From positions 988 through 64,987 of the forward strand of contig JBHJOH010000013.1 of the NCBI GenBank assembly GCA_050329955.1: a stretch of 64,000 nucleotides of DNA. The letters run 5' to 3'. Positions 25,709 to 64,000 of this stretch are shown in pieces. Each line of letters starts with the position of its first letter. The stretch's first letter is position 1. This DNA comes from Acidimicrobiia bacterium. GTDB taxonomy: Bacteria; Actinomycetota; Acidimicrobiia; Spongiisociales; ZC4RG35. Made by a program: the position numbers and the translations under genes. Below the pieces are notes generated by a model that did not search any database, was not told the origin of the DNA, and worked only from the letters and a program-made list of their open reading frames with translations.

Positions 25709-25955
25709 GTTCCTGTGCCTGACTTTTGTGGATTCCGGCCCACCCTACGCCGACTGGCGGCCTTGTTCTCATCGACGTGGGGTGGGGGGTTCGAAAGCCC
25801 GTGCGAGAACGCCCGATCAGCTCGCGACGGAGATGCCCTACGCCTCCGCTTGACCCCATGGCTTCGCCTGGGCCGATGGACCCGTTCATGGAAGACCACT
25901 TTTTCGCGGGGCGGACAGGTCGATAGGAACCCTCGTGGCGTCGAGGGGATGTGTT

Positions 25956-43796: not shown

Positions 43797-43804
<8 letters not shown>
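42884..43804 (+). CDS. LLM-class F420-dependent oxidoreductase
   Basis: AERQGFRSAWCTHFSRGIDSLTVLAAAA...GRLVLGVGVSHRPVIE...YQRLFEREG is the typical luciferase-like/F420 family layout. Confidence 0.85.
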
Positions 43805-48265
<4,461 letters not shown>

Positions 48266-48269
<4 letters not shown>

Positions 48270-49066
48270 GTGAACGTCCTTGCCAGGTCGGATGGCTTGA
48301 ACTCGCCACGTCGTACACCGAGCGGATCGATTCGGCGAACCAAGGCGATGTGGTCGGGGTCCGGATCGGGCACGCTGCTCAGATCTTCGGCGACGACGAA
48401 GTCGAAGCCTGTGGCTGCCACCACCTCGTCGAGTGACACATCAGGAAACATCCGACGTAGCCGGATCTCGCCCTCCGGGTAGTCGAACACGCCCAGTTCT
48501 GTCACCAGCCACTGAGGGCCGCCGCCGGTGTAGCCGAGTTCGGCGCGGGTGCCGGCCGGGGTGCGATGACCGAGATCTGTGATGAAGTCGCAGGTCTCCA
48601 CCAGACAGCGGCCGCTGCGGTGGTTGGTAGTCCACACGGTCAGGTTGCGGATGGTGGCGGACAGGTTGCAGCCACCACCGCCGCCGCCGAGCTTGACCTT
48701 GGGCCCAGGCATTCCGCCGATGGCGGTGACGTTGGTGTTGCCGTGGCGGTCGATCTGTCCACCCGAGAGGAACATGCGATCGACGTCGCCCCGCACCGCC
48801 GAGTCGAAGAACTCCTCGAACCGCATCGAGTAGGCCGATCCCTTCTTGAGGGCGAGATCGTTGCCGGAGGGGGGGATGAAATCGGGCGTCGGATCGATGG
48901 CGTACATGGCGCCTTCGACCAGCATCATCGAAGGGGCGTGTGTTTGTTTGGCGAGGTGCATGGCCACCTGGGCGCAGGGGCTGCCGAAGCCGTGGAACAC
49001 CACTTCGCCGTCGGCGATCGTGCCGGCGAGGGCCACCACGAACCATTCATCGAGGGTCCAGCTCAT
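48266..49066 (-). CDS. CoA-transferase subunit B (family I, glutaconate/3-oxoacid CoA-transferase type)
   Basis: FLSGGQIDRHGNTNVTAIGG...KLGGGGGGCNL. Start placed at MSWTL (49066), giving an ATGA overlap with subunit A (the track start is 49084). Confidence 0.85.
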
Positions 49067-49977
49067 GCGAACACCTCCATCCAACGGTCGGTCGACTCGT
49101 GATAGCCGGTGATGGCCTCGAGTCGGCTCTCGCCGATCATCCGCCGGTACTCGTCTTCATCGGTGCCGAGCACGTAGCGGGCCAGATAGGTGGATGCTCC
49201 CTCGGCGGTGGCCGCCGCCCTCACGTACTCGGCGATGTGGGTGCGGTCGTAGGCGTACCCGGGGTAGCACGACGTCGGATGTGCACCGAACGGTGCTTCC
49301 ACGATCGCCGCCACCCGGTAGCCGGGAACGGTGATGCCGGCACTCGCCACCTCTTCGGTTGTGACGATCCGGTCGACGGTGGCGATCACCGCCGCCGATG
49401 CCATGGCGAAGCGTTCGTCGAGGACGTAGGGCTGCTCGAGGTGCAGGTTGCCGGCGGCGTCGCCGATCGGGGCGTGGAGCAGCGCCACGTCGGGCCGAAT
49501 CGCCGGGACCACGGTGAGTGTCTCACCGGTGAAGGGGCACTCCACCTCGGCGTATTCGGGGTGGAGGGCGCGGATGTCGGTCCCTCGAACACCTCGCACC
49601 GGGATGAACGGGATGCCCATCTCGGCTGCCCGCAACTGGTTGAGCATGGTGTCACAACAGCTCTCGCGGATCTCCAGCGACTGGGACTCTGCCGCTCGCC
49701 GGAAGGCCGGGGCCAGCCCGTGATCCTGTTCGAACCCGACGTAGCTCTCCTCGCTCACCGCCAACAGTCCGGCGGCGATGAGGAGGTCGACATCGATGGA
49801 ATGGGCCGAGCCAACCGCGTGGAGGCCGCCGATTCCGGAGCGGATCAGCTGTCGGACCAGCGCCATCGGCAGCCTGGCGGAGAGGCCGCCTCCCAACGCA
49901 ACCACCGAGCCTGGAGAGACCAGGCGAGCGGCCGAGGCGAGGTCGATGAGTTTGTCGGTGCCCAGATGGAACGGCAT
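49063..49977 (-). CDS. CoA-transferase subunit A
   Basis: KLIDLASAARLVSPGSVVALGG...LRAAEMGIPFIPVRG...DVALLHAPIGDAAGNL is the typical family I CoA-transferase A subunit. Confidence 0.85.
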   Translation of the reverse strand: MPFHLGTDKLIDLASAARLVSPGSVVALGGGLSARLPMALVRQLIRSGIGGLHAVGSAHSIDVDLLIAAGLLAVSEESYVGFEQDHGLAPAFRRAAESQSLEIRESCCDTMLNQLRAAEMGIPFIPVRGVRGTDIRALHPEYAEVECPFTGETLTVVPAIRPDVALLHAPIGDAAGNLHLEQPYVLDERFAMASAAVIATVDRIVTTEEVASAGITVPGYRVAAIVEAPFGAHPTSCYPGYAYDRTHIAEYVRAAATAEGASTYLARYVLGTDEDEYRRMIGESRLEAITGYHESTDRWMEVFA

Positions 49978-49984
49978 CAGAACC

Positions 49985-50752
49985 TCACTGTGCGGTCATG
50001 CCGCCGTCGACCGCGAATATCGAGCCGGTCACGAAGCTGGCGTCGTCGGAAGCGAGATAGAGCGCAGCCTGGGCGATCTCCATCGGCACACCGATCCGGC
50101 CGATCGGGTACTTGAGGGCGGTCTTGGCGAGTCCTGCCTCGAGGTCGCCGTCGCCGCGCATCCGCATGAGGGGCTCCATCAGGGGGGTGTACACCGTCCC
50201 GGGACAGAGAGCGTTCACACGGATCTTGCGGGGGGCGAGGTCGATCGCCATCGATTTGGTCAGTGACACGACCGCTCCCTTGGCGGCGCAATAGGCGGCG
50301 AAACCGGCCACGGCCACCAGTGCCGCCACCGACGCCTGATTGACGATGGCGCCGCCTCCGGAAGCGTCCAGGTGGGGAATGGCGGCCTTGGAGGTGAGGA
50401 ACGTGCCCTTGACGTTCACATCGAAGCAGCGGTCCCAGTCGCTCTCGTCGGCATCGGCGACGCTTCCCTTGGAGTTGACCCCGGCGTTGTTGTAGACGAT
50501 GTCGAGCCTGCCGAGGCCGGCGGCGGCTTCGTTCACCGCTCGGGAGATGTCGGTGGCGTCGGCCACGTTGCCGGACACGGCAATGGCGGTTCCTCCGGCG
50601 CGGCTGACGATCGCCGCCGTTTCCTGAGCGGCCGCCAGATCGATGTCGACCACCGCAACCGACGCACCCTCGGACGCGAACAACTCGGCGGCCGCTCGTC
50701 CGATTCCCGATCCGCCCCCGGTGATGAGTGCAGCCTTGCCTTCCAGTCTCAT
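49985..50752 (-). CDS. Short-chain dehydrogenase/reductase (candidate hydroxyalkyl-CoM dehydrogenase)
   Basis: MRLEGKAALITGGGSGIGRA, NNAG, S...YCAAK catalytic set, C-terminal FAVDGGMTAQ. Trimmed from track ORF 49985..50887. Confidence 0.88.
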   Translation of the reverse strand: MRLEGKAALITGGGSGIGRAAAELFASEGASVAVVDIDLAAAQETAAIVSRAGGTAIAVSGNVADATDISRAVNEAAAGLGRLDIVYNNAGVNSKGSVADADESDWDRCFDVNVKGTFLTSKAAIPHLDASGGGAIVNQASVAALVAVAGFAAYCAAKGAVVSLTKSMAIDLAPRKIRVNALCPGTVYTPLMEPLMRMRGDGDLEAGLAKTALKYPIGRIGVPMEIAQAALYLASDDASFVTGSIFAVDGGMTAQ

Positions 50753-50768
50753 GCGATTCCTTTCTTGG

Positions 50769-52121
50769 TCATGCCGGTTGTTTGGTCGCGGCCTGTGCGG
50801 CGCGCAGGATCGGGTCGTAGACCGGTGCATAGGGAGGGGCGTAGGAGAGATCGAGGGCGCCGAGATCGTCGACGTCGAAACCTGCATGGAGGGCGGTGGC
50901 CACCACGTCGATGCGTTTGGCAGTGGCAGGGTCGGTCGAGATCATCTGGGCACCGAGAAGTCGTCCGCCCGGCTCGTGTACCAGCCGGGTCCAGGTCGGT
51001 GCCGCGCCCGGGTAGTACTTCGCACGGGATCCGGCAGTGGAGTCCGACGCCATCGCCTCGAGCCCGGCAACCCTCGATTCCGACAGCGTGAGGCCGGTGC
51101 GCGCAACGGTCAGATCGAAGATCTTGGCGACGGCCGTCCCCACCATTCCCCCGAAACGGGCGTCACCACCGGCAGCAACGATGCCCGCCACCCGCCCGGT
51201 CTTGTTGGCGGTTGGCCCCAGCGCGATGTGGGCCGGGGCCCCCAGCACCAGATGGTGGACTGCGGCACAGTCTCCGGCGGCGAAGACGTTGGGAAGCGAG
51301 GTCCGCATCCGGTCGTCGACCTCGAGAGCGCCGTTCGAATGCGTGGACGCCCCCGCATTGGCGGCGAGCCCACCCCCGGGGCGGATACCGACCGCCATCA
51401 CCACGGCGTCGAAGGTCCGCACGCTGCCATCCGAGAGGGCGGCGGTGGAGCCATCCCACCCGGTGAGCCCGATACCCGTCAGCAGCTCGCAGTGCGAGGA
51501 GACCTCAGCCTCGACCCGGGCAGCAGCGTCGGGGTCGAGGTTGGGCATCACCCGGTCGGCTGCTTCGACCACGGTGACCCTGCACCCCGCTTCGGTGAGG
51601 GCATCGGCCATCTCGAGCCCGATGTAGCCGCCGCCAACCACCAGGACCGAACGAACGGCGCCGGAGATGACGTCCTCACGGAGGGTGATGGCGCCCTCGA
51701 GTGTTCGCACGGTGTGCACGCCCGGCCCGTCGACGCCCGGTATCGGAGGCAGCGCCGGTGAGGCCCCGGCGGCGACGATCAGCGTGGTGTACGTGATGGC
51801 GTCGTCGCCCGCTGCGGAGCGAAGGGTCACTCGCTGGTCGCTCGCATCGATGGAGACGACCCGGGTGTGGAGCCGGAGATCTATACCCCGCTTGGTGCGG
51901 AAGTCATCGGGAGGAACGCTGACGAGGTCGAGTGGATCGGAGACCAACCCCGCCACGTAGTACGGGATCCCGCACAGACCCCAGGCGGCAAACCCGGAGG
52001 CCTCGGCCACTACGATCTCGAGGTCGCCGTCGAACCGCCGCGCCGAGGACGCGGCGGACATGCCGGCGGCGCCACCTCCGATCACAACGAGACGATCCGT
52101 CACGGACTCCGGCTCCTCCAT
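50769..52121 (-). CDS. CoA-disulfide-reductase/NADH-oxidase-like single-cysteine pyridine-nucleotide-disulfide oxidoreductase
   Basis: LVVIGGGAAGMSAA; active-site-type FAAWGLCGIPYYV (Cys50 codon 51972..51974); a second dinucleotide fold VLVVGGGYIGLEMA; AAGDCA; a dimerisation domain. Confidence 0.85.
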   Translation of the reverse strand: MEEPESVTDRLVVIGGGAAGMSAASSARRFDGDLEIVVAEASGFAAWGLCGIPYYVAGLVSDPLDLVSVPPDDFRTKRGIDLRLHTRVVSIDASDQRVTLRSAAGDDAITYTTLIVAAGASPALPPIPGVDGPGVHTVRTLEGAITLREDVISGAVRSVLVVGGGYIGLEMADALTEAGCRVTVVEAADRVMPNLDPDAAARVEAEVSSHCELLTGIGLTGWDGSTAALSDGSVRTFDAVVMAVGIRPGGGLAANAGASTHSNGALEVDDRMRTSLPNVFAAGDCAAVHHLVLGAPAHIALGPTANKTGRVAGIVAAGGDARFGGMVGTAVAKIFDLTVARTGLTLSESRVAGLEAMASDSTAGSRAKYYPGAAPTWTRLVHEPGGRLLGAQMISTDPATAKRIDVVATALHAGFDVDDLGALDLSYAPPYAPVYDPILRAAQAATKQPA

Positions 52122-52240
52122 CGAGAACGCTGCGAAGCGTACGGTCGGGGTCGTCGCCTAACCCATGGCCTCCCGGGGGGAAGTTCCCCCCGGGAGTGGT
52201 CCTGTGAGGCCACATGATGGGCGCTCGGAGCGGCCGGTGC

Positions 52241-53281
52241 TCAGATTTCGGATCGCACCAGTTCGACGGCCTTGCCCATGTTGCGGAGCTTGCCATAAGC
52301 GACCGTTCGGCTGAAGTATCCGAGCCCGCAGTCGGGGGAAATCAGCAACCGGTCGGGCGGAACGATGTCGAGCCCCTTCCGGATCCGCTCGGCGATCTGC
52401 TCGGGTGGCTCGACCATCGTGTTCTTTGCGTCGACCACGCCGATGCCGAGTACCTTGTCGGCTGGGAATCCGCGGAGTGCCTCCAGCTCGCTGAAGTCCT
52501 TGTTGCAGGTCTCGATGTGGATCACGTCGACTGGCGACTCTCTGAACAGGCCGAGCATGCTGGCGGCATGGTCGTCGTAGACATCTCGCTGACCGTCGAC
52601 GCTTCCGTAACACACATGCCAGAACTTCAGTGCTTCGACACCTTCGAACATCGTGTGCTGTACTTCGATTTGCCACAGGTCGTTGGTATATGGCGGGAGC
52701 ACGTCAATCAACTGGATGGCCTCGAGTCCCTGATCCACCAGGTACTTGAGCTCCCTGTTGAGGGCCACCGCAATGTCGCGTGCCAGCGCGATGTTGTCCT
52801 CGTAGAATTCGTTGTGCAGGATCACGCTCTGCTGGGCGGGACCGAGCATGGCCACCTTGAAGGGCTGGTCGGTGGCACGCTTCATGGCGTAGACCACGCC
52901 CTCGAAGATGGACCGAACCCACTCGACCTTGTCGTGCACGACACCCTTGTAGAAGGGCGCATACTTCGCCCCGTCGCCGGGAGGTCCGTAGGGAGCGATG
53001 CCACCGAGCATTTCAGGGATGTAGTGGAAGATCGGCTCGAGCTGGAAACCCGGCGCCTCCCATTCGTAGTACTGGGCACCATCGCACAGGACGTCGAGGC
53101 CCGCCTCCTCCTGCTCGACAGCGCAGAGTTTGACGGCATCTTCATAGGCCACCCGCAGATTGTGGCTGCGATAGGTGGGCTCGGTACGGCTGCCGAACAC
53201 CCGCCCCTGGAGCCAGTGGGGCCTAGGGAAGGCAGAAACCGCCGAGCTGGGGAGTAGTACGTCCTCACCGCGGATCTCCAT
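52241..53281 (-). CDS. MetE-C-terminal-like (cobalamin-independent methionine synthase family) zinc alkyltransferase, paralogue 1; candidate thiol (CoM) alkyltransferase
   Basis: MEIRGEDVLLPSSAVSAFPRPHWL. Zinc-ligand motif FWHVCYG (52610..52618) and LLISPDCGLG (Cys 52327..52329). GGAGGTG Shine-Dalgarno sequence before ATG 53281. The track's 556-aa version (to 53911) is an over-extension. Confidence 0.85.
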   Translation of the reverse strand: MEIRGEDVLLPSSAVSAFPRPHWLQGRVFGSRTEPTYRSHNLRVAYEDAVKLCAVEQEEAGLDVLCDGAQYYEWEAPGFQLEPIFHYIPEMLGGIAPYGPPGDGAKYAPFYKGVVHDKVEWVRSIFEGVVYAMKRATDQPFKVAMLGPAQQSVILHNEFYEDNIALARDIAVALNRELKYLVDQGLEAIQLIDVLPPYTNDLWQIEVQHTMFEGVEALKFWHVCYGSVDGQRDVYDDHAASMLGLFRESPVDVIHIETCNKDFSELEALRGFPADKVLGIGVVDAKNTMVEPPEQIAERIRKGLDIVPPDRLLISPDCGLGYFSRTVAYGKLRNMGKAVELVRSEI

Positions 53282-53450: not shown

Positions 53451-55112
53451 TCAGTTCTGCCGGAGCGCTCGCAAGGTCTCCCAGGCACGGCAGGCGAGCT
53501 GAAGGTTGAAGCGGGTGTCAGGATGGTTGAGGTCGTATCCGCTGATCTCGCGGATGCGTTGCAATCGGTACTTGAGCGTCGATCGGTGGATGAACAGCGT
53601 CGCCGACGTCTCGTCATAGTTGCCGCCGCACTCGAGGTAACGAGACAACGTGTCGACGAGGCCGGCGTTTCGTTTCGTGTCGTACTCGAGCAGGGAGCCG
53701 AGCCAGCGCCGAACGTATCCCTCCGTGGCCGAGGGGTCTTCGACTTCGGCGAGGAGCTGGAATACCCCGAGATCGTCGTAACACGTCGCTTGGTCCTCCC
53801 AGGCAGCCGCCCGTTGAACCTTGAGAGCCGACTCGGCCTGGCGGAGCGAGCGGGGAAGCTCCGATACGGACTCGCAGCTCTGGCCGACGCCCACGCGGCA
53901 GCGTCCCCCACGTAGCTCGGCGAGGATCGCGGTCCTGAACTGGTTCCAGTCGGTATCGCGATCGGCCAACACCACCACTTGGGCTCCGCGGCGGATCAAG
54001 AGCGAGCCCACCGGCATGTCGCGTGCAACCCTCCTCACGGTGTGGAGGAATGCTTCGCCGTCATCGGCACCGGTGGCGCCTTCGACGATCACCACGCGAT
54101 GCGGCCGTTCTAGGTCGTATCGGAGGGCCTGCGCCCGACGCAGGGCACTCTCCTCGTCCGTCCCGGCGAGGAGCTCCTCCACCAGGTCGCGCCGTACCCG
54201 GAGTTCGCTCTCGGCGAGGCTCCGTAGTCGGGCGGTCTCCATGGCGAGCACGGTGAGCCCGTGCTCGAGGGCGGTGAGCTGCTGGTCGGTGGCCGTACCC
54301 TCCGGGTCGATCAACACCAGTGCGGCGATGACGTCGGGTTGTGGCTCGGTCACCCCCATCCAGCGGTCCTCCACCCGGATCGGCCGGGATTCCTTGAGTG
54401 CCCGTCGCAGGAGCTGTTCGCGCCGGGCGGCCGCTTGTTTTGGATAGGGGTCCGGGCGTCCGGGTCCCGCCCAGGCCCGGAGGTTGCCGAAGCGATCCTC
54501 GATCGCCACCGGCAGGCCTGTGAGGTCGTGGACGGCCCGGGCTATGCCGTCGCGGCCCTCGCCGGATGCTGCCACCGCCGTCAAACGGGCATGGATCTCC
54601 ATGCTGCGCTGCAACACGCCGAGGGTGTGATGGAGTTGTCCGTTCGCCCGCTCCGCCTCGGCGACGGCCCGCTGTTCCTGTTCGTGGAGTCGCCGGTTGG
54701 CGATGGCGGCGCCGGCATGCTGCGCCAGCGCTCGCAGCAGGAAGTGTTCCTCATCGGAGGGATCAGGCACGCAATGTGCCACGAGCCATCCGGCGTGTCC
54801 GTGGCCCGAGTGCACCGGGTAGGCCCAGGCCATCGCCCCATCGGACATGCTCACGTGCCCTCCGGCCGCACCGGCATGATCGAGAATGTCCGAGACCGTG
54901 AGCTCACCCACGGGGACCGGGTCGTCGTCGAGTTCGAAGCGGGCCCACGTGCATGGGGCGAGCGATCGAGCGGCCCCGGCGGCCAGCTGCAGGATCTGCT
55001 CCTCGTTGGTGCTCTCCATCATCAGCTGGGCCAGGACCAGCAGGCTGCGGAGGCGGGACAGCGAGTCTCTGTGGGCGGCACCGCTCTCCATCGATGCGCC
55101 CGCGTCGATCAC
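53451..55112 (-). CDS. PucR/CdaR-family transcriptional regulator with an N-terminal GAF-like sensor region
   Basis: C-terminal PucR HTH TSATLFIHRSTLKYRLQRIREISGYDLNHPDTRFNLQLA. The N-terminal ~150 aa are GAF-like. Confidence 0.85.
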   Translation of the reverse strand: MIDAGASMESGAAHRDSLSRLRSLLVLAQLMMESTNEEQILQLAAGAARSLAPCTWARFELDDDPVPVGELTVSDILDHAGAAGGHVSMSDGAMAWAYPVHSGHGHAGWLVAHCVPDPSDEEHFLLRALAQHAGAAIANRRLHEQEQRAVAEAERANGQLHHTLGVLQRSMEIHARLTAVAASGEGRDGIARAVHDLTGLPVAIEDRFGNLRAWAGPGRPDPYPKQAAARREQLLRRALKESRPIRVEDRWMGVTEPQPDVIAALVLIDPEGTATDQQLTALEHGLTVLAMETARLRSLAESELRVRRDLVEELLAGTDEESALRRAQALRYDLERPHRVVIVEGATGADDGEAFLHTVRRVARDMPVGSLLIRRGAQVVVLADRDTDWNQFRTAILAELRGGRCRVGVGQSCESVSELPRSLRQAESALKVQRAAAWEDQATCYDDLGVFQLLAEVEDPSATEGYVRRWLGSLLEYDTKRNAGLVDTLSRYLECGGNYDETSATLFIHRSTLKYRLQRIREISGYDLNHPDTRFNLQLACRAWETLRALRQN

Positions 55113-55708
55113 GATGATCGGGCCAGGAACTGGTCGGGTTCGACGTACCAGGGGTTGTCGACGACCATGCCCGACATCAGCACCTTCGGGTGGGTGTGGA
55201 GGATGTCGATGAGCACTTGGCCGTCGGTGAACTGCTCGAGGTCATAGAGACAGAGGATGGTCTGGGGGTACTTGGGGAGGAATCGGTTGAGCTCGGCTTC
55301 ATAGGCGACGAGCAACTCGACCCCGGGGAGGTCTTTGAGGGCCCAGGTCATTTCGCCGGCGGCGCGCATGAACTCGTATCCGTCGTCGTCGAATGCTGCT
55401 CGTGCTGCTTCCGCCCAGAACGAGAGCATCTGATCCGGGCAGAAGAATCCACCAAAGAGGTAGGAATCCTCCGAACGAAGGACCGAGAGCTGGCCGCGGA
55501 CTCGGCGGGCTTCGCCCACGATCATCTTGGCGTGTTCAGGGTCGCCCCGGTCGAGCACGCACACGCAGCGGTCGCCCGCTTCGAGTCCTGCCCGGAGGTA
55601 CGGGAACAGGATCTGATCCCGCTGGTCGTCGCCGCGATAGAACGCGCAGATGTGGTCTCCGACGTGCATCTCCACGCCGGGCAGACCCGTCGATACAGAC
55701 AGTCGCAT
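55109..55708 (-). CDS. MEDS-domain (methanogen/methylotroph DcmR sensory) protein
   Basis: GDHICAFYRGDDQRDQILFPYLRAGLEAGDRCVCV...ILCLYDLEQF...ILHTHPKV matches my recollection of the MEDS pattern. The stop overlaps the PucR start. Alternative start 55750. Confidence 0.75.
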   Translation of the reverse strand: MRLSVSTGLPGVEMHVGDHICAFYRGDDQRDQILFPYLRAGLEAGDRCVCVLDRGDPEHAKMIVGEARRVRGQLSVLRSEDSYLFGGFFCPDQMLSFWAEAARAAFDDDGYEFMRAAGEMTWALKDLPGVELLVAYEAELNRFLPKYPQTILCLYDLEQFTDGQVLIDILHTHPKVLMSGMVVDNPWYVEPDQFLARSS

Positions 55709-55925
55709 TGCTCCGCTCCCGAGCTTGCGTTGGGTGGCGAAGCGTATCAACGGCTGGATATCTACGGCTCGTCACAGCAGGATTACTTCCGTCGAGAATC
55801 CTGACCTTGGAGGACAGGGTCTGCTCGCGGGTGACTCCGTAGCGTTCCAGGACACCCCAGCAGGTGCCGGTGGCCGGATCACCGACCGGCTCAGACCGGG
55901 CCGGATGTCTCCCAGGAGGTTTGCC

Positions 55926-56657
55926 ATGGAACGTCGGACAGCGGTCGTGACCGGTGGGGGATCGGGGATCGGTTTCGCCACCTCCGAACGTCTCAGGGCC
56001 GATGGGTTCATAGTGGTTGTGCTCGACCTCGACGGTGCCGCGGCCGGACGGGCCGCCGGGGATGGATTGGGAATCGAGACCGATGTCTCCGATCCGGGAT
56101 CGGTAGAGGCGGCCTTCCGACGGATCGCCGAGGAGGTGGGGCCGGTGGACGTGCTCGTCAACAATGCCGGCATCACCGGTTCGCAGCAGGCGACCCGCCT
56201 GCACGAGACGCCTTTGATCGATTGGGACCTGGTCACCGCCGTCAACATTCGGGGTCCATACCTCTGCTCACGGGCCGTGCTGCCCTCGATGGTCGAGCGC
56301 CGCTCGGGCCACATCATCATCATTGCGTCGGTAGCCGGCCTCAATCCGTTTCCGGGCCGGTCCGCCTATTCCACATCGAAGGGCGCTGCCTTGATCATGG
56401 CAAAGTCGATAGCCATCGACTATGCCGCTGATGGCATCCGCGCCAACGCGGTGTGTCCCGGCATGGTGGAGACGCCGATGACCCAGTGGCGACTCGACCA
56501 GCCGGATCTGAGGGCCGCAGTCGAGTCGCAGGTGCCACTGGGCAGGGTTGCCCAGCCCGAGGACATCGCCGACGCTGTCGCAGTTCTCGCTTCTGGCCAC
56601 TTGTCCTATATGACCGGGCATGCCCTGGTGGTGGACGGTGGGTGGACCGCCAGGTGA
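55926..56657 (+). CDS. Short-chain dehydrogenase/reductase with R-hydroxypropyl-CoM-dehydrogenase-like arginine placement
   Basis: MERRTAVVTGGGSGIGFA, NNAG, S...Y148STSK152, with Arg at Y-3 (R145, 56358..56360) and at Y+41 (R189, 56490..56492). Trimmed from track ORF 55650..56657. Confidence 0.88.
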   Translation: MERRTAVVTGGGSGIGFATSERLRADGFIVVVLDLDGAAAGRAAGDGLGIETDVSDPGSVEAAFRRIAEEVGPVDVLVNNAGITGSQQATRLHETPLIDWDLVTAVNIRGPYLCSRAVLPSMVERRSGHIIIIASVAGLNPFPGRSAYSTSKGAALIMAKSIAIDYAADGIRANAVCPGMVETPMTQWRLDQPDLRAAVESQVPLGRVAQPEDIADAVAVLASGHLSYMTGHALVVDGGWTAR

Positions 56658-56878
56658 CGTCCGGCAACTTGCACCGTCAGTGGGTGCGGCCCGGTCCTGT
56701 CAGGACAGGTTTCCCGGCCGGGTTCGCCCTCCCATCACGTCGCCGTTGACCGGTCCTCGACATAGCGTCGCCTCATCGCCGAGTCGGTTCGAGGAGGTGG
56801 AGGCAGCGCTGACGGAAGGCCTGAACCCCGGGACACGCCAGAAAGGCGGCCCGAGTCGTTCGATTTCGGAGGAGAGAT

Positions 56879-57988
56879 ATGCAGATTCGTGGTGAAGAGG
56901 TAACGATTCCGACCTCGATGGTGGGCAACTATCCGAACCCCCGGTGGTGGGACGCCCACTGTGTACGGGACTGGACCGGTGACCAGGAGCCGCCGGACGC
57001 GTTCAACCGGGAGGCGTTGCAGGACGCCATGGCCGCACTGGTGACCGACCAGGAACAGGCCGGGCTCGACATCATCACAGATGGTCGTCTCCATGGTGAC
57101 AACTACGCCGACCAAGCGTTGTACTACTACTACAAGCGACTCGGGTACGACCTCAAGGGCGGATTCCTGGGCTTCCCCATTTACAGCCGTCTGCATGCCG
57201 CCAGCGCCACCCAGGAAGTCAAGCGCCGTGGGGCGATCATGGTCGAGCAGGCCAGAGCGCTGAAGCGGGCGACCAACAAAGCCACCAAGGTTCAGTACAC
57301 GGGTATCCAGGTGCTCGGACAGGCCACCAACGACCTTTTCTACGAGTCGGGACGCGACCGGGCCATGGCCATCGCCGCCGCCATCAACGAGGACATCCTC
57401 GAGGTCGATGCCATGGGGATCGACTTCATCCAGCTCGACGAATTCACCTGGCCGTACTTCTACGAGGACTGGGCGATCGAGGCCTTCAACCGCGCCGTGC
57501 AGGGTGTCAAGAACGCCAAGATCATCGTCCACATCTGCTGGGGCAACTGGGGCGGCACCCCCGCTTACTACCCGGATGAGACCGCCGAGGCCGGTGAGAT
57601 CTTCGACCTCACCCAGCGCAAGGGCGAAGCGCCGTCGGCGACCGCCTCGGTGATTCCGAAGTCCTACGAGGCCAACATCAACGTGTTGAACCTAGAGAAC
57701 TGCGGCCGGCGCGCTGACGACCTCAGCGGGCTCGACGTCATCAAGACCCACCCGTTGCCCGAGAACGTCCAGTTCTGGGCGGGTGTGATCGATGTGAAGT
57801 CGACCATCACCGAGACCGCCGAGGAGGTGGCGGATCGCATCCGCAGACTCCTCGAGTTCGTGCCGGCGGATCGCCTCGGCGTGACCACCGACTGCGGCCT
57901 CATCCTCCTGCAGCGGTACATCGCCGTCGACAAGCTCCACGCCCTGGTCGAGGGAACCAAGATCGTCCGGCGCGAGCTCGGCGTCTGA
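56879..57988 (+). CDS. MetE-C-terminal-like zinc alkyltransferase, paralogue 2; epoxyalkane:CoM transferase (EaCoMT/XecA/EtnE)-like
   Basis: MQIRGEEVTIPTSMVGNYPNPRWW. Zinc motif IIVHICWGNW (H218/C220, 57530..57538) and GVTTDCGL (C339, 57893..57895). 369 aa. GGAGGAGAG Shine-Dalgarno sequence upstream. Confidence 0.88.
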   Translation: MQIRGEEVTIPTSMVGNYPNPRWWDAHCVRDWTGDQEPPDAFNREALQDAMAALVTDQEQAGLDIITDGRLHGDNYADQALYYYYKRLGYDLKGGFLGFPIYSRLHAASATQEVKRRGAIMVEQARALKRATNKATKVQYTGIQVLGQATNDLFYESGRDRAMAIAAAINEDILEVDAMGIDFIQLDEFTWPYFYEDWAIEAFNRAVQGVKNAKIIVHICWGNWGGTPAYYPDETAEAGEIFDLTQRKGEAPSATASVIPKSYEANINVLNLENCGRRADDLSGLDVIKTHPLPENVQFWAGVIDVKSTITETAEEVADRIRRLLEFVPADRLGVTTDCGLILLQRYIAVDKLHALVEGTKIVRRELGV

Positions 57989-58060
57989 CACAGCATCGGG
58001 GGTGGTGGAGGCCGGTAGCTCGGCCCCACCACCCTTGGTGTTCGAGAGGAGAGCGTTCGT

Positions 58061-59476
58061 ATGGTCACCGACACGAAACCCGACGCCGCCGCTGAGATCG
58101 CTGAGATCGTCGGGCGCGCCCGGCGGGCTCAGGCCGCCGTTGCCGACTACAGCCAGGCGCAGGTCGACGAGCTCGTCACCGCCGTCGCCTGGTCGGTTGG
58201 TCGCGACGACCGGGCCGAGTCGCTCGCCCGGACCGCCGTCGACGAGGGCGGGTTCGGTACCTACGACGACAAAGTGACGAAGATCAAGCGCCGGGTGTTC
58301 GGTGCCCTCGCCGACATGCGCCACGTCAGGACCGTCGGCGTCGTCGAGGAGGACCCGGAACGGGGACTGGTGAAGATCGCCAAACCGGTTGGCGTGGTGG
58401 CAGCGCTCATCCCCACCACCGGCCCGGACGCCACACCCCCCATGAAGGCCATGTTCGCGTTGAAAGGCCGCAACGCCATCGTGATCGCAGCGCACCCGCG
58501 CACTCAGGGGAGCTCTCGAGCGGTGGTCGACGTGATGCGGGCGGCCTGCGAACAGGTAGGCGCCCCGGCCGATCTGATCCAGATCGTCGAACGACCGTCG
58601 ATCGCCAAGACCCAGGCCCTCATGGCCCAGGTCGATCTGGTGGTCGCCACTGGCGGTGCCGCCATGGTGAAGGCCGCCTACTCGTCGGGGACCCCCGCCT
58701 ATGGGGTCGGGGTGGGCAACTCGGTGCATGTGGTCGACGAAACCGCCGACATCGACGATGCCGCCGCCATGATCGCCGCCGCCAAGACATTCGACCTCGC
58801 CACCAGCTGCCTGGCCGACAATGCCGTGGTGGCCGAGGCCGCGATCGCCGACCAGCTCATGGAGGGACTCGTCGCCCGGGGCGGGCACCGGTGCGACGAT
58901 CACGAGAAGGCGCTCCTCCAGAAGGCCATGTGGCCCGACGGAGGGCACATCCCCACCATCGACGTCATCGCCAAGCCCGCCGCACACATCGCATCATTGG
59001 CCGGTTTCGACATCCCCGCCGACCGCACCTTCCTGATCGTCGATGAGGACGGCGCCGGCCCCGACCATCCGTTCTCCGGTGAGAAGCTGTCGGTGGTCCT
59101 GGCCTTCTACACCTACCGCGGTGGCATCGGAGGTGCGGTCGAGATCGTCAACGCCATCACCGACTACCAGGGACTCGGCCACACCTGTGGGATCCACACC
59201 TCGAGTGATTCCAACGTCGACGCACTCGCCACCGGCACCCGCACCGCCCGGGTGATGGTGAATCAGAACCTCAACGAGGGCGCCGGCAGCGCTCGCAACG
59301 GATTGCCATTCACGCTGTCGCTCTCGTGCGGGACCTGGGGCGGGAACGTCACCACCGAAAACGTCAACGCCCGCCACTTCGTGAACCTCACCTGGGTGTC
59401 CCGTACCATTCCGCCCAAGGCGATCGACGAGTCCGAGCTATTCGCCGTACACTGGGATCGATACGGACGTGGCTGA
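58061..59476 (+). CDS. CoA-acylating aldehyde dehydrogenase (SucD / EutE-PduP / SauS-like branch of the ALDH superfamily)
   Basis: KPVGVVAALIPTTGPDATPPMKAMFALKGRNAIVIAAHPR, GGAAMVKAAYSSGTPAYGVGVGN, catalytic Cys in KTFDLATSCLADN, and C-terminal GTWGGN. Confidence 0.85.
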   Translation: MVTDTKPDAAAEIAEIVGRARRAQAAVADYSQAQVDELVTAVAWSVGRDDRAESLARTAVDEGGFGTYDDKVTKIKRRVFGALADMRHVRTVGVVEEDPERGLVKIAKPVGVVAALIPTTGPDATPPMKAMFALKGRNAIVIAAHPRTQGSSRAVVDVMRAACEQVGAPADLIQIVERPSIAKTQALMAQVDLVVATGGAAMVKAAYSSGTPAYGVGVGNSVHVVDETADIDDAAAMIAAAKTFDLATSCLADNAVVAEAAIADQLMEGLVARGGHRCDDHEKALLQKAMWPDGGHIPTIDVIAKPAAHIASLAGFDIPADRTFLIVDEDGAGPDHPFSGEKLSVVLAFYTYRGGIGGAVEIVNAITDYQGLGHTCGIHTSSDSNVDALATGTRTARVMVNQNLNEGAGSARNGLPFTLSLSCGTWGGNVTTENVNARHFVNLTWVSRTIPPKAIDESELFAVHWDRYGRG

Positions 59477-60383
59477 CCTACCGACTCCGAACGCACGGTC
59501 ACACCCCTACCGAGGGTTGTCGGTTCAGCATGTCGATCAGACCCCCGATCCCGACTTCATGCGCTCCTACCTGCTCGGACGGGAGGTCTACCGGCGGTCC
59601 GACTACATCGCCCTCATCCATGGTGACGATGTCGGTTTGGCCACCGTGTCGAAAGAGTCCACCGAACCGCTGTTCTCGCCCGTGACCGAGGTGGAGGTGT
59701 GGGCCGGGCCGGATCGCATGCTGATGGTCGAGGATCCGAGCTGCGACGTCGGCAACGCCACCGCACTCGCCCGAACTGCATTGGCCAATGCGCGACCTGG
59801 CGTATCGGGATATCTCATCAAGGGCCAGTTCGAGCACATCAACTTCATCTGGGAGCCGGCGCCGATCCGCATCCATGTCACCGAGGTCACGCCCCCGGAT
59901 CCGCCCAAACTGTTCGTGCAGGCAACGCAGGTGGTTGCCTTCGATGAAGATCTCCAACCGATCGACTTGGTGGTCGAGGCCGTCACCTTCCCGGATCTGG
60001 CCGACTCGGCTCCACCATCCGACGCCTATCTGCTTCCCTGCCGGGGTTCCGGGGCCGATCTCCCGGGAGAGGTGGCGTTCCTCGACACCCGTCCGGCAGA
60101 TCGCCTCGACTGGACCCTGATCGGATGTGAACGCTCGATGCAGTTCCATCGTCACTTCTACGGCGACGAGCCGCGTCAGGTGGACATCTGCCCCAAGGTC
60201 CGGGTGGCCGGGGAGGATCCGGAAGGTCTGTGGCTGGTCAAGTGCTGCCTGATCGAGCGGGGCATCGAGTACGAGCGGGGGAGAGCCGTGGTGCCGTGGG
60301 GTTCGAACCTCGACGAAGTGCGGTCGGCTCTCAGGTTGCTCACCGGCATCGACCAGCCGGCTGATTCGTTCGCCTGGACGTGA
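59469..60383 (+). CDS. Hypothetical protein, translationally coupled on both sides within the CoM operon
   Basis: ORF only, no family recognised. GTG 59469 overlaps the ALDH stop, and its own stop overlaps the GTG of the next gene (GTGA at 60380). The Cys/His-rich C-terminal part reads LIGCERSMQFHRHFYGDEPRQVDICPKV...LVKCCLIERG. The start is uncertain. Confidence 0.6.
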   Translation: MADLPTPNARSHPYRGLSVQHVDQTPDPDFMRSYLLGREVYRRSDYIALIHGDDVGLATVSKESTEPLFSPVTEVEVWAGPDRMLMVEDPSCDVGNATALARTALANARPGVSGYLIKGQFEHINFIWEPAPIRIHVTEVTPPDPPKLFVQATQVVAFDEDLQPIDLVVEAVTFPDLADSAPPSDAYLLPCRGSGADLPGEVAFLDTRPADRLDWTLIGCERSMQFHRHFYGDEPRQVDICPKVRVAGEDPEGLWLVKCCLIERGIEYERGRAVVPWGSNLDEVRSALRLLTGIDQPADSFAWT

Positions 60384-61726
60384 GCATCCACCTCGCCGAC
60401 TCCCGGGTGTACGGACACCTGTGGGCCACCGATGAGGCGCGTGCCATCCTCGGCGAGGAGGCGCGGTTCGGTGCCTGGCTCGATGTGCTCGCCATGCTCG
60501 CCGAGGCCCAGGCGGAGGTCGGCCTGGTCCCGTCCGAAGCCGCCGCCGGCATTCGTGCCCACGCCGACCTCTCCTTGATCGACCTCGATCGCGTCGCCGC
60601 CGAGACCCGTGCCAGCGGACACTCCACTCTCGGGTTGATTCGGGTGCTTCGATCTGTCCTCCCGGAAGACGCTCGCGAGTGGGTCTATTACGGCGCCACC
60701 GTCCAGGACCTCACCGACACCTGGACGTCACTGGTCATGCGCCGGGTTGGCGATCTGCTCGAACGGGACCTGGCCCGAATCGAGGCAGCCTGTCTGCTGC
60801 TGGGACAGGTCCACCGGGATACCCCGATGTTGGGGCGGACCCACGCCCAGCCCGGGCTGCCGATCACCTTCGGGTTCAAGGTGTCGGTGTGGGCAGCCGA
60901 GGTCCGCCGTCACCGCCGACGGCTGGCGGAGGGCCGGGTCCGGTGGGAGCTGGTCCAACTGGGCGGGGCCCTGGGCACGATGGAGTTCTGGGGATCCCAG
61001 GCGATACCGATGCTGGAGGCGTTCGGTCGGCGCAGCGGGCTCGGCGTCCCCACCATCGCCTGGATCACCTCCCGGGACGGAGTGGCCGAGTTCACTCACC
61101 TGTTGGCGATGGCGGCCAGCACGATCGCCAAGATCGGCAACGAGATCATGGAGTTGCAGCGGCTCGAGATGGGCGAGCTCCGGGAGGGGTTCATCGCCGG
61201 GACCGTGGGCAGCATCACCATGCCCCACAAACGGAACCCCGAGATCTCCGAGCACCTCGACACGCTGGCGCGTCTGGTCCGTTCCAACGCCGCCGTTGTG
61301 ACAGAAGGCATGGTTCAGCTCCACGAGCGCGACGGGCGGGCATGGAAGGCCGAATGGATCGCGGTGCCTGAGGCGTGCGCCATGACCCTCGCCGCCACCG
61401 GCTTCGCCGTGACGCTGCTCGAGGGTCTGGAAGTGATGTTCGAACGGATGGCCCACAACATCGATGCCCAGAACGGGTACATCTTCTCGGAGCCTGTCAT
61501 GCGGGCCCTCGCCGACATCATCGGCAAACACACCGCGCACGACGTCGTCTACGCCGCGGCCATGAACGGATTCGAAGCGGGCGTGTCACTGGTCGACGCC
61601 CTCCAGGCCGATCCCCGGGTGTCCGGCCATCTCGGCAGAGATCAGATCGAGGCCCTTCTCGATGTCGGGAAGGCGACCGGGTCGGCGCCCGCCTTCGTTG
61701 ACCGGGTTGCCGAGGCCCTCAGATGA
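60380..61726 (+). CDS. Aspartase/fumarase-superfamily lyase (adenylosuccinate-lyase / 3-carboxymuconate-cycloisomerase-like); XcbC/XcbD-type candidate
   Basis: GATVQDLTDTW, GRTHAQPGLPITFG, and the signature loop GSITMPHKRNPEISEHL. Confidence 0.88.
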   Translation: MSIHLADSRVYGHLWATDEARAILGEEARFGAWLDVLAMLAEAQAEVGLVPSEAAAGIRAHADLSLIDLDRVAAETRASGHSTLGLIRVLRSVLPEDAREWVYYGATVQDLTDTWTSLVMRRVGDLLERDLARIEAACLLLGQVHRDTPMLGRTHAQPGLPITFGFKVSVWAAEVRRHRRRLAEGRVRWELVQLGGALGTMEFWGSQAIPMLEAFGRRSGLGVPTIAWITSRDGVAEFTHLLAMAASTIAKIGNEIMELQRLEMGELREGFIAGTVGSITMPHKRNPEISEHLDTLARLVRSNAAVVTEGMVQLHERDGRAWKAEWIAVPEACAMTLAATGFAVTLLEGLEVMFERMAHNIDAQNGYIFSEPVMRALADIIGKHTAHDVVYAAAMNGFEAGVSLVDALQADPRVSGHLGRDQIEALLDVGKATGSAPAFVDRVAEALR

Positions 61727-62679
61727 GAGCAGGCACCGCGCCCCGGATCTCTCTGGCGCTGCTCCCCACTCCTTTGGTGCCCGCTCCTCGTCTCTCGGCC
61801 GAGATCGGCGTGGAGGTGTGGTTCAAGCGCGACGACCTGACCGGTCTCGGGCTCGGGGGCAACAAGGTCCGTGCGCTGGAGTTTCTCATCGGTGCCGCCG
61901 AAGCCGCCGGTTCGGATTGCCTCATCACCGGCGGCGGCCCGCAATCGAACTGGGTGATGCTCGCCGCGCTGGCCGCCATCACCCGGGGACTCGACGCTCA
62001 TGTCGTCTACTTCGGACCGGAGGTGGAATCCACCGGGAACCTTCAACTCCTGCGCAGCCTTCCAGGCATCGAGATCACCTTCACGGGCGACCCGGTGCGC
62101 GCCTCGGTCGATCCCGTCCTCGACGCCGTGGCCGGTCGCCTGTCCTCGGCCGGCCACCACCCATTCCTCATCGGGAGAGGCGGCGCCGGGCCCATCGGCG
62201 GGCTGGGGTATCTCCACGCCACACTCGAGATCGACCGGCAGGCCGAACAAACCGGATTCGCAACGGTCTGGACCGCCACTGGGTCGTGTGGGACCCAGGC
62301 CGGGCTGGTGGCAGGACACGCCGTCTCAACTCATCGCCGCCGCGTGGTGGGGGTGTCGGTGCACCGACCGGTCGAGGAATGTGTGGAGCGCATCGGGGCG
62401 ATCGCCCGGGGAACGCTCGAGTTGTACGGCGCCTCCGCTGCCCCTCATCCGGATTGGGAGGTGCTCGGAGGCCAACTGGGACGCGACCCGGCCGCCGAGC
62501 GTCGGGTGGAAGAGGCGGCACGGCTGGTGGCGAGGACCGAAGGAGTGTTCCTCGACCCCGAGTTTGCCGCCCCGGCGATGGCCGAGCTCGTCGCCCGGGC
62601 GGCGGAAGTCGAGGGCCCGGTGCTGTTCCTGGTCTCCGGGGGCGGTCCCACCCTGCTGACCGAGGGGGCGTTCGCATGA
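61723..62679 (+). CDS. PLP-dependent ACC-deaminase / D-cysteine-desulfhydrase-family enzyme; XcbE-type candidate
   Basis: LPTPLVPAPRLSAEIGVEVWFKRDDLTGLGLGGNKVRALEFL (PLP Lys in GGNK), GGGPQSNW, TGSCGTQAGL. ATGA overlaps on both sides. Confidence 0.88.
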   Translation: MRAGTAPRISLALLPTPLVPAPRLSAEIGVEVWFKRDDLTGLGLGGNKVRALEFLIGAAEAAGSDCLITGGGPQSNWVMLAALAAITRGLDAHVVYFGPEVESTGNLQLLRSLPGIEITFTGDPVRASVDPVLDAVAGRLSSAGHHPFLIGRGGAGPIGGLGYLHATLEIDRQAEQTGFATVWTATGSCGTQAGLVAGHAVSTHRRRVVGVSVHRPVEECVERIGAIARGTLELYGASAAPHPDWEVLGGQLGRDPAAERRVEEAARLVARTEGVFLDPEFAAPAMAELVARAAEVEGPVLFLVSGGGPTLLTEGAFA

Positions 62680-64000
62680 CCACCCCGCCCCCCGGGTACC
62701 TGGGCGCTGCGGGACGCGTCGCATCGGGCCCGGCTGCTTCATTGGTCGACACCGGCTATCGCCTCGAGATCGAGGATGCCGGACTGCTCCATCGGGGGTT
62801 GGGACTGGCCGACCTGGCCCACCTCCACGAGTTGGAGGGAATTGGTGTGGTCCCGCCCGCCGCCGCCGCCGCCCTCGGGTCGGAATTGCTCGTCATTCAC
62901 GAGACGCCCGCCGACCGGTTCCCCTACGACGCCGTCTACGGCGATGCCTACAACAGTCGGGAACGTGAGCTGGAACGGCGACTCGGAGCGTTGGCAGGGT
63001 GGTTACACACCGGGCGAACCCGACGCGAAGCCGGCCGAATCGCTTTTCGGATCGCCACGAGATCCTCGCTGCTCGATCTTCACGATGCGGTGGCTCGCTT
63101 CGGCTCCTCATTGACCACCTTGGCCCGGGCGCAGGCCACGGCGCCGTGGAACGACACCACGTATCTCCAACCCGCCCAGCCGTCCACCTTCGGCCATTAC
63201 CTGTCGGGCTTCGCCGAGCAGGTGACCCGCGATCTGGAACGAATCACCGTCGCCCACCGGCTTGTGAATCGGTCCCCAGCCGGTGTCGGCGGAGTCGCCG
63301 GTTCGTCCATTCCCCTCGACCGCCATCGGCTTTCCACCGCCCTCGGGTTCGATGAGCCCGCCGCGCACACCCGCGATGCCATGTGGTCGGTCGACTGGCT
63401 CACCGACGTGATGGTGGCCGCCACTCAGGCCGTCATCACCGCCGATCGGCTGGCAGAGGACCTGGAGATATTCGCCAGTCCCCAGTTCGGCTACGTGGTG
63501 CTCTCGGGCTCGGCCACCCGGGCTTCGGTGCTGCTTCCTCAGAAGCGGAACCCTTATGCCCTGGCGGTCATCCGAGGTGGTGCCGGGACCTTGATCGGTC
63601 GAACCACCGGGGTCATGGTCACGCAGCGGACCCCATCGGCTCGCACCGACAACTGGCTTCACGCCTATGGCGAGGTGCTTCGCTCCGTCGACCTGGCCCG
63701 ACGCCTCCTGATCCTGGCGACTGATGTGGTCGAAGGTCTCGAAGTCGATGTGAGAGCGCTGACAGCGTCGGCCGGCGCCAACTTCTCGATCTCGGCCGAC
63801 CTCACCGAACGGCTGGTGCTCGACCGGGGTCTCGACTACCGCACGGCCTACCGCGTGGTCGGTCGGGCCGTGGCCGATGCGGTTGGGTCCGGCGGCTCCC
63901 ACCTCGAACCTGGGTCGCTCGACCGTGCCGCCGCCGCTCTCGGTCTCGGCGGAATCGACGACCTCGACGGCGTGCTGGCGGCGGTCAACGATCCCGCTGC
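62676..64000 (+). CDS. Aspartase/fumarase-superfamily lyase (argininosuccinate-lyase-like), partial (3' end beyond the window); XcbC/XcbD-type candidate
   Basis: Not in the ORF track (no in-window stop). My translation from ATG 62676: MTTPPPGYLGAAGRV...TYLQPAQPSTFGHYL...GVGGVAGSSIPLDR...SATRASVLLPQKRNPYALAVIRG..., an ASL-type layout and signature loop. Confidence 0.85.
   Translation, partial: MTTPPPGYLGAAGRVASGPAASLVDTGYRLEIEDAGLLHRGLGLADLAHLHELEGIGVVPPAAAAALGSELLVIHETPADRFPYDAVYGDAYNSRERELERRLGALAGWLHTGRTRREAGRIAFRIATRSSLLDLHDAVARFGSSLTTLARAQATAPWNDTTYLQPAQPSTFGHYLSGFAEQVTRDLERITVAHRLVNRSPAGVGGVAGSSIPLDRHRLSTALGFDEPAAHTRDAMWSVDWLTDVMVAATQAVITADRLAEDLEIFASPQFGYVVLSGSATRASVLLPQKRNPYALAVIRGGAGTLIGRTTGVMVTQRTPSARTDNWLHAYGEVLRSVDLARRLLILATDVVEGLEVDVRALTASAGANFSISADLTERLVLDRGLDYRTAYRVVGRAVADAVGSGGSHLEPGSLDRAAAALGLGGIDDLDGVLAAVNDPA

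Follow-up and report, generated by a model that had tools for sequence, protein, structure and literature searches.

A predicted xcbA-xcbD-xcbE-xcbC operon for coenzyme M biosynthesis in an epoxide assimilation island of an Acidimicrobiia bacterium

The stretch of DNA analyzed here (hereafter, the window) comprises 64,000 nucleotides of an Acidimicrobiia bacterium (GenBank assembly GCA_050329955.1, contig JBHJOH010000013.1, positions 988 to 64,987 of the forward strand). Its right-hand end is occupied by four coupled open reading frames (ORFs), 59469..>64000, that very probably form a bacterial operon for coenzyme M (CoM) biosynthesis, with the gene order xcbA-xcbD-xcbE-xcbC, located inside an island for CoM-dependent assimilation of epoxides or alkenes. 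The four genes are as follows:

59469..60383, plus strand: xcbA, 304 aa, GTG start; predicted [2Fe-2S] sulfoethanethioaldehyde reductase of the XcbA/DUF7714 family, for the last step of CoM synthesis.
60380..61726, plus strand: xcbD, 448 aa; adenylosuccinate-lyase-like, predicted 3-sulfopropionylcysteine synthase acting on L-cysteine and sulfoacrylate.
61723..62679, plus strand: xcbE, 318 aa; pyridoxal phosphate (PLP) enzyme of the D-cysteine desulfhydrase/1-aminocyclopropane-1-carboxylate deaminase family, predicted to release sulfoethanethioaldehyde.
62676..>64000, plus strand: xcbC, 441 codons without a stop, with the 3' end beyond the window; argininosuccinate-lyase-like, predicted phosphosulfolactate phosphate-lyase that yields sulfoacrylate.

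The ORF listing places the four frames where a first-pass annotation, made from the DNA letters, had located them, and direct reading of the junctions supports the coupling described there: overlaps of 4 nt join xcbA to xcbD (GTGA), xcbD to xcbE (ATGA) and xcbE to xcbC (ATGA). The 304-aa ORF is indeed overlapped at both ends, by 4 nt with xcbD and by 8 nt with an upstream aldehyde dehydrogenase (ALDH) gene; at the latter junction, GTGGCTGA, the end of the ALDH gene contains the GTG of xcbA. The motifs claimed for the trio were also found, namely GSITMPHKRNPE (the XcbD signature loop), GGNK in XcbE and LLPQKRNPY in XcbC. Third-position GC (GC3) in the four frames is 0.79-0.86, as expected of real genes in a region of 66-69% GC, and all four products match profiles so strongly that they lie far beyond chance ORFs.

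The product of the 304-aa ORF had been described as matching no family. This description does not hold, as the protein is a clear member of the XcbA/DUF7714 family by both NCBIfam and Pfam profiles: NF052538 (‘XcbA family protein’) gives 368.2 bits (cutoff 150), with residues 6-293 aligned to profile positions 5-290 (the profile has 293), and PF24830 (DUF7714) gives 277 bits (cutoff 25; E = 1.9e-82). By tblastn, the window protein is 57-60% identical to the genes of Nocardioides sp. JS614 and Mycolicibacterium chubuense NBB4, and its identity to the xcbA locus of Xanthobacter autotrophicus Py2 is 46.5% at the best place and 42% in the best segment. The Py2 locus, xcbA1, lies beside xcbB1 on pXAUT01 (CP000782, 7914..8845; L001 in our numbering of loci), is split over two frames (7914..8483; 8246..8845) and carries no annotation in the record. 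An exact-sequence look-up with the XcbA product matched no record, tblastn against phage genomes gave no match, and a literature search under the name ‘DUF7714’ returned no papers.

In Py2, XcbA is the fifth gene of the xcbA-E cluster. Wu et al. (2022, PNAS) reported that the protein, reddish-brown when purified, turned the XcbE product sulfoethanethioaldehyde into CoM (PMC9457059). It showed a reduction-dependent [2Fe-2S]1+ electron paramagnetic resonance signal (g = 1.89, 1.96, 2.03) with a midpoint potential (Em) of -372 mV, and had nine cysteines but ‘no conserved motifs’ according to the authors (PMC9457059). Within the family, both the redox-active cluster and the reductase activity are documented for the Xanthobacter protein only (PMC9457059). 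In 2021, a comparative genomic study of vinyl-chloride-degrading Mycolicibacterium had singled out this gene, conserved but annotated as hypothetical, as possibly coding for the missing CoM enzyme (PMC8727900). The proposal that the ORF is an additional component of the CoM pathway is borne out by the family match and by linkage to xcbD, xcbE and xcbC. Of the two functions that had been guessed for it, a reductive last step agrees with the thioaldehyde reduction published for XcbA, and sulfur delivery finds no support. Because both the reductive step and a Cys-rich metal site had already been published (PMC9457059), the earlier inference is a rediscovery.

Profile scores also separate the lyases from housekeeping enzymes. 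XcbD scores 673.4 bits with its own model, NF052536, above the cutoff of 600, while purB (TIGR00928; 256.8 bits, cutoff 326.2) and pcaB (264 bits, cutoff 356) remain below theirs. For the XcbC product the best NCBIfam match is XcbC (NF052535; 364.7 bits, profile positions 9-399 of 495), and argH (TIGR00838) falls short with 214.5 bits (cutoff 279.5). The two lyases thus score as XcbD and XcbC rather than as PurB and ArgH. The best NCBIfam match of the PLP enzyme is XcbE (NF052537; 233.4 bits), followed by CuyA (191) and D-cysteine desulfhydrase (179). Identity to the JS614 and NBB4 genes amounts to 52-53% for xcbE and 66% for xcbC.

The gene for the first enzyme of the pathway lies elsewhere in the window:

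43797..44657, minus strand: comA/xcbB; phosphosulfolactate synthase, first CoM step; TIGR03849, 300.8 bits (cutoff 280).

As the first-pass annotation stated (with a distance of ~15 kb), comA is found 14.8 kb from xcbA as the last gene of the divergent minus-strand string, beside a 2-KPCC-like gene. Its product is 59% identical to Xanthobacter XcbB (Xaut_4872) and 30-38% identical to the xcbA-adjacent ComA of other Actinomycetota.

The enzymology of XcbB-E and XcbA has been established in Xanthobacter (PMC9457059), and by homology the same steps can be proposed for the window. ComA/XcbB would combine sulfite and phosphoenolpyruvate into phosphosulfolactate, from which XcbC would eliminate phosphate to give sulfoacrylate. 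XcbD would then add the thiol of L-cysteine to sulfoacrylate, and the resulting 3-sulfopropionylcysteine would be decarboxylated and cleaved by XcbE with the aid of PLP. The sulfoethanethioaldehyde so formed would be converted into 2-mercaptoethanesulfonate (CoM) by XcbA, by means of a redox-active [2Fe-2S] cluster.

If the ORF belongs to the CoM pathway, its homologues should be associated with CoM genes across genomes. The GTDB collection, with one genome per species, contains at least 199 stretches encoding XcbA relatives; 80 of these and three plasmid loci (83 loci) were compared by tblastn with the window proteins. Among the 75 loci with at least 1.4 kb of downstream sequence, xcbD lies directly 3' of xcbA in 72, the exceptions being Xanthobacter (order A-B-C-D-E), L037 and L056. 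The position of xcbE after xcbD is kept in 72 of the 83 loci, and the full set of xcbD, xcbE and xcbC is found in 58 of the 63 loci with at least 5.3 kb of sequence downstream. In L010, L012, L014 and L018, xcbA-D-E are present and no xcbC was detected within 10 kb of downstream sequence (required coverage at least 50%, with E ≤ 1e-20); these four are Acidimicrobiia metagenome-assembled genomes (MAGs) whose sister genomes do carry xcbC. The A-D-E-C order is the actinobacterial norm, as seen in JS614 and NBB4.

The comA gene occurs in two arrangements. It immediately precedes xcbA in 49 loci, among them those of JS614, NBB4, Pseudonocardiaceae, Kribbella and Geodermatophilaceae. In 11 genomes of Acidimicrobiia/Ca. 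Spongiisociaceae, a comA gene 59-63% identical to that of the window is found 8.3-9.3 kb away, on the opposite strand and after a 2-KPCC-like gene, and EtnE is directly upstream of xcbA, which matches the plan of the window. Displacement of comA is therefore a lineage trait and not a peculiarity of this window. The closest locus, L004 (soil MAG MFD09779.bin.1.206; XcbA 73%, EtnE 92%), has the ALDH gene between EtnE and xcbA.

EtnE, 2-KPCC and ComA are nearer to Xanthobacter (80%, 66% and 59%) than to JS614 and NBB4 (51%, 55% and 33-35%), while XcbA, XcbD, XcbE and XcbC are nearer to JS614 (57%, 58%, 52% and 66%) than to Xanthobacter (42%, 45%, 38% and 41%). From these identities the island looks like a mosaic, with Xanthobacter-like EtnE, 2-KPCC and ComA combined with actinobacterial XcbADEC and CoA-transferase genes. 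We infer that the xcbA-adjacent comA was replaced by a comA that travelled with the 2-KPCC module.

With at least 199 species-level stretches encoding an XcbA relative, the complete bacterial CoM pathway with an epoxide:CoM transferase is widespread. Complete xcb clusters with EtnE (within L004-L083) are found both in Acidimicrobiia that live as sponge symbionts (Ca. Spongiisociaceae) and in many Actinomycetota from soil, such as Kribbella, Haloechinothrix, Pseudonocardiaceae, Geodermatophilaceae and Mycobacterium sp. SM1. To our knowledge, none of these sponge and soil carriers is a reported alkene or epoxide user.

The published work on XcbA saw no motif, and a broader sampling of the family was used to examine cysteine conservation. 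A scan of 1.84 billion representative sequences yielded 437 DUF7714 clusters (50% identity level, E ≤ 1e-3), and 51 full-length members, down to 24% identity, were aligned. No variation is seen at P142, P143, C191, G219, C220, C241 and C259, and conservation at C260 is 90% or more. The resulting XcbA signature is P-C ... G-C ... C-P ... C-C, and its PCR, GCERS, CP and KCC motifs are also visible in the Xanthobacter xcbA1 locus. On the basis of this conservation, C191, C220, C241 and C259 are predicted to be the [2Fe-2S] ligands, and C260 may provide a second thiol for redox chemistry or proton donation; the five residues C191, C220, C241, C259 and C260 make up a list for mutagenesis. The first-pass annotation had envisaged metal binding by a Cys/His-rich C-terminal part. 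The cysteine half of this idea agrees with the invariant residues and with the published cluster; the histidine half does not stand, since H227 and H229 are not conserved beyond the close clade, and we rejected them as cluster ligands.

The AlphaFold2 model of XcbA is confident (predicted local distance difference test, pLDDT, 92.1; predicted template-modelling score, pTM, 0.88). A Foldseek search of the PDB with the full model found no meaningful relative (best E 1.3e-3, template-modelling (TM) scores 0.14-0.25); RsmE and DJ-1, which appeared within this TM range, were discarded as not meaningful. The C-terminal Cys domain alone did no better against the PDB (best E 0.13, TM ≤ 0.27), and a sequence-profile search of the PDB with the 51-sequence alignment gave noise only (E > 0.5). 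With no solved relative of its fold, XcbA is worth considering for structure determination.

The genes that surround the operon put it in a metabolic context. On the plus strand the order is SDR (short-chain dehydrogenase/reductase), EtnE, SauS-like ALDH, xcbA, xcbD, xcbE, xcbC; the string of genes on the minus strand ends with comA. Apart from the genes already described, the island consists of the following:

44654..46222, minus strand: 2-KPCC-like NAD(P)H:disulfide oxidoreductase; Pyr_redox_2 and Pyr_redox_dim domains; 66% identical to Xaut_4867.
46224..48269, minus strand: ADP-forming acyl-CoA synthetase (NCBIfam).
48266..49084 and 49063..49977, minus strand: CoA-transferase subunits (NCBIfam).
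49985..50887, minus strand: SDR (NCBIfam).
50769..52121, minus strand: CoA-disulfide-reductase-like (CoADR-like) protein (NCBIfam).
52241..53281, minus strand: second MetE/EtnE-like protein, 346 aa, ATG at 53281 (NCBIfam).
53451..55112, minus strand: EtnR1-like regulator, CdaR/PucR-HTH type; HTH_30 83 bits, GGDEF_2 77 bits.
55109..55750, minus strand: EtnR2-like regulator; MEDS 146 bits.
55926..56657, plus strand: SDR, first gene of the plus-strand string; adh_short_C2 205 bits, residues 105-333.
56879..57988, plus strand: EtnE/XecA-type epoxyalkane:CoM transferase; Meth_synt_2 domain; 80% identical to Xaut_4865.
58061..59476, plus strand: SauS-like CoA-acylating ALDH; NF047625, 514 bits (cutoff 600).

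Xaut_4865, the Xanthobacter counterpart of EtnE, is annotated as 2-hydroxypropyl-CoM lyase. The SauS-like ALDH is 72-83% identical to the genes of JS614, NBB4 and L004, and the catabolic genes of the minus strand (46224..53281) are 51-68% identical to those of JS614 and NBB4. The stop of the 2-KPCC-like gene and comA overlap by GTGA, as read at the junction. The start of the plus-strand SDR gene is uncertain, since its ORF opens at 55650 and homology begins at around residue 93. In the 221-nt gap between the SDR gene and EtnE (56658..56878), a short inverted repeat, CCTGTC-AG-GACAGG, was seen by eye.

The overlap-coupled EtnR1-like and EtnR2-like genes head the minus-strand string, between the two strings of genes and facing SDR-EtnE-ALDH-xcb. 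Their domain composition is that of EtnR1 and EtnR2. In M. chubuense NBB4, these two are an epoxide-responsive activator pair (PMC11197473), and by analogy the pair in the window is likely to be an epoxide sensor. That CoM biosynthesis and utilization genes belong to one regulon, as had been suggested from the split placement of comA, is plausible. Altogether, the company of EtnE, a 2-KPCC-like protein and these regulators points to a CoM-using pathway as the setting of the xcb operon. The second MetE/EtnE-like protein has 28% identity to the EtnE of the window, and orthologues of it (69-76%) are found in six actinobacterial xcb loci (L044, L061, L065, L074, L075 and L078); this would add a third lineage to the putative CoM transferases.

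Several observations weigh against the assignment of these genes to CoM biosynthesis. The score of XcbE (233.4 bits) falls below the narrow NCBIfam ‘exception’ cutoff of 450, so that the orthologue call derives from best match and synteny and not from the curated cutoff. XcbC, with 364.7 bits, is likewise below a narrow ‘exception’ cutoff (575), and the gene is incomplete at the window end; its orthology is supported by synteny and by the identity to the JS614 and NBB4 genes. XcbA is only ~42-46% identical to the Py2 xcbA1 locus, and the locus tag and primer sequence given for XcbA in the paper are unlike xcbA1, which suggests that a different Py2 copy was presumably used. The published assay left the physiological electron donor undefined (PMC9457059), and the ligands of the cluster are assigned here from conservation, by inference. 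Finally, an alkene monooxygenase was not found among the scanned ORFs of the window, and the related loci were not systematically searched for one.

Other interpretations can be considered. One assigns the XcbA-like protein a role as Fe-S electron carrier, sulfur handler or chaperone of the reactive XcbE product, and leaves the reduction to chemistry (by a thiol) or to another enzyme. Some data fit this view: in the published assay, CoM arose without added reductant and cysteine gave no visible reduction of the cluster (PMC9457059); a two-electron reduction is an unusual task for a one-electron [2Fe-2S] center; and distant DUF7714 members adjoin other C-S PLP enzymes without xcb genes near. 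CoM appeared, however, on addition of XcbA to the XcbE filtrate (PMC9457059), the CC pair could provide the second electron, and the strict linkage of xcbA, xcbD and xcbE fits a dedicated enzyme of the pathway. We consider this interpretation improbable. A second one, more improbable still, is that the SauS-like ALDH (58061..59476) performs or aids the last CoM step and that XcbA has another role in this organism. The 8-nt translational overlap of the two genes would agree with it, and in Methylohalobius crimeensis, whose cluster has this ALDH and lacks XcbA, the ALDH was proposed to be a functional analogue of XcbA (PMC11507031). Across the compared loci, however, the ALDH gene is within 10 kb of xcbA in only 24 of 83 and adjacent only in the window and L004; the distance is 5.6-8.7 kb in JS614 and NBB4, and the sponge Acidimicrobiia loci lack the ALDH and still carry xcbADEC. 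Furthermore, the protein scores as a CoA-acylating dehydrogenase, which fits catabolic oxidation of 2-oxoethyl-CoM. The ALDH probably belongs to the catabolism of epoxides and CoM adducts and not to CoM synthesis, and its unusual coupling to xcbA could mark a functional link, possibly the salvage of sulfoacetaldehyde from thioaldehyde hydrolysis.

A third possibility, hardly conceivable, sees housekeeping proteins in the trio (PurB and ArgH for the lyases, D-cysteine desulfhydrase for the PLP enzyme) and takes the 304-aa ORF for an unrelated hitch-hiker or a spurious frame in high-GC DNA. All that speaks for it is a general family resemblance (Lyase_1, PALP). The purB and argH scores lie below their cutoffs (257 versus 326 bits and 214 versus 279.5 bits) and XcbD passes its own; the 304-aa ORF has a GC3 of 0.79 and the DUF7714 match described above; and synteny with comA and EtnE is kept across loci from the 199 matching stretches. 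The profile cutoffs, GC3, the DUF7714 match and synteny effectively refute this possibility. An xcbADEC operon for CoM synthesis is our preferred reading, and the locus adds a further case of the known bacterial xcb pathway in an etn/xec-type epoxide island.

Five distant DUF7714 members were also examined in their contigs. The gene in L085 (30% identity) is surrounded by comA, a PALP gene and a pair of Lyase_1 genes. In the other four, the metagenome contigs L084, L087, L088 and L089 (24-30% identity, with all four cysteines kept), no xcb genes were detected nearby. The neighbors in L084 are fragments of PALP, Hexapep and CysRS; those in L087 are a regulator of AsnC/TRASH type and two enzymes, one a PALP protein with a CBS domain and the other of the Cys_Met_Meta_PP family. 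Hence, PLP genes of cysteine/transsulfuration type accompany DUF7714 in two of the four loci without xcb genes, and nothing of the kind is seen in the remaining two. Both L087 and L089 contain DUF2085. The single AsnC/TRASH-type regulator is a faint indication that the distant branch might be of archaeal origin. The five loci hint at a broader role of the fold and are too few to conclude. A speculation, to which we give a rather low probability, is that DUF7714 extends beyond the CoM reductase and is a structurally unprecedented Fe-S family with a strict PC...GC...CP...CC signature, whose general role would be to partner PLP C-S lyases and reduce their reactive thio-carbonyl or persulfide products.

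The remaining window is ordinary chromosomal DNA, with genes for 2-oxoacid dehydrogenase E1/E2, a sigma-70 factor, a two-component system and a xanthine-dehydrogenase-type molybdoenzyme. The host chromosome is of high GC (67% for the genome), and the nearest relatives suggest that it probably belongs to an actinobacterium related to Acidimicrobiia. Scanned in full at gathering thresholds, the window yielded no Rfam match. Megablast of 56800..64000 against PLSDB found only matches of 77-78% to single genes of pNOCA01 and pXAUT01, which indicates that the window is not a known plasmid. A 554-aa ORF (41089..42753, minus strand) has a GC3 of 0.88, a strong coding signal and no Pfam match; it is flanked by a GntR regulator and by an F420/LLM-type oxidoreductase gene (42884..43804) that abuts comA. 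A heliorhodopsin gene (24941..25708, minus strand; PF18761, 322 bits) adjoins the gene of a 2526-aa SdrD-B/DUF11 repeat surface protein (25935..33515, plus strand).

Comparison with known systems shows different degrees of likeness. In Xanthobacter Py2, XcbA belongs to the same NF052538/DUF7714 family, has a similar length, shares the PCR, GCERS, CP, KCC and VPWG motifs, and is also encoded in linkage with xcbB-E and epoxide carboxylase genes. The two differ in gene order (A-B-C-D-E in Xanthobacter, A-D-E-C with comA elsewhere in the window), in genomic context (a linear megaplasmid in Xanthobacter, a chromosome-like context in the window) and in cysteine content, as the window protein has six and nine were reported for the Py2 protein. 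The likeness is closer in the known ethene and vinyl-chloride degraders JS614 (pNOCA01) and NBB4 (pMYCCH.01/.02), whose A-D-E-C order and coupling are identical to those of the window and whose companion genes are of the same kinds (CoADR-like, SDR, CoA-transferase, acyl-CoA synthetase, SauS-like ALDH and F420/LLM oxidoreductase). In JS614 and NBB4, however, a comA of another lineage (33-35% identical to that of the window) is directly upstream of xcbA, where the window has EtnE and the ALDH gene, and xcbA is annotated only as ‘hypothetical protein’.

The MAGs of Acidimicrobiia/Ca. Spongiisociaceae (L005-L026, L079, L081) and L004 share the plan of the window: EtnE (84-92%) lies upstream of xcbADEC, and comA (59-63%), after a 2-KPCC-like gene (74-80%), ends the string of the opposite strand. 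Most Acidimicrobiia loci lack the ALDH, and comA is 8.3-9.3 kb away in them, compared with 14.8 kb in the window; with an XcbA identity of 64-73% to these loci, the window represents a distinct lineage. Archaeal CoM pathways (ComA-ComE, ComF/MMP16 CoM synthase) share only the first enzyme, ComA, and the end product, as the later steps are carried out by unrelated enzymes and there is no counterpart of XcbA (PMC9457059). Measured against these systems, the locus brings little that is new: the pathway and the function of XcbA have been in the literature since 2022, and a named NCBI model covers the family. Its residual value lies in the cysteine signature, in a protein with no solved structural relative, in the breadth of distribution and in the mosaic architecture of the island.

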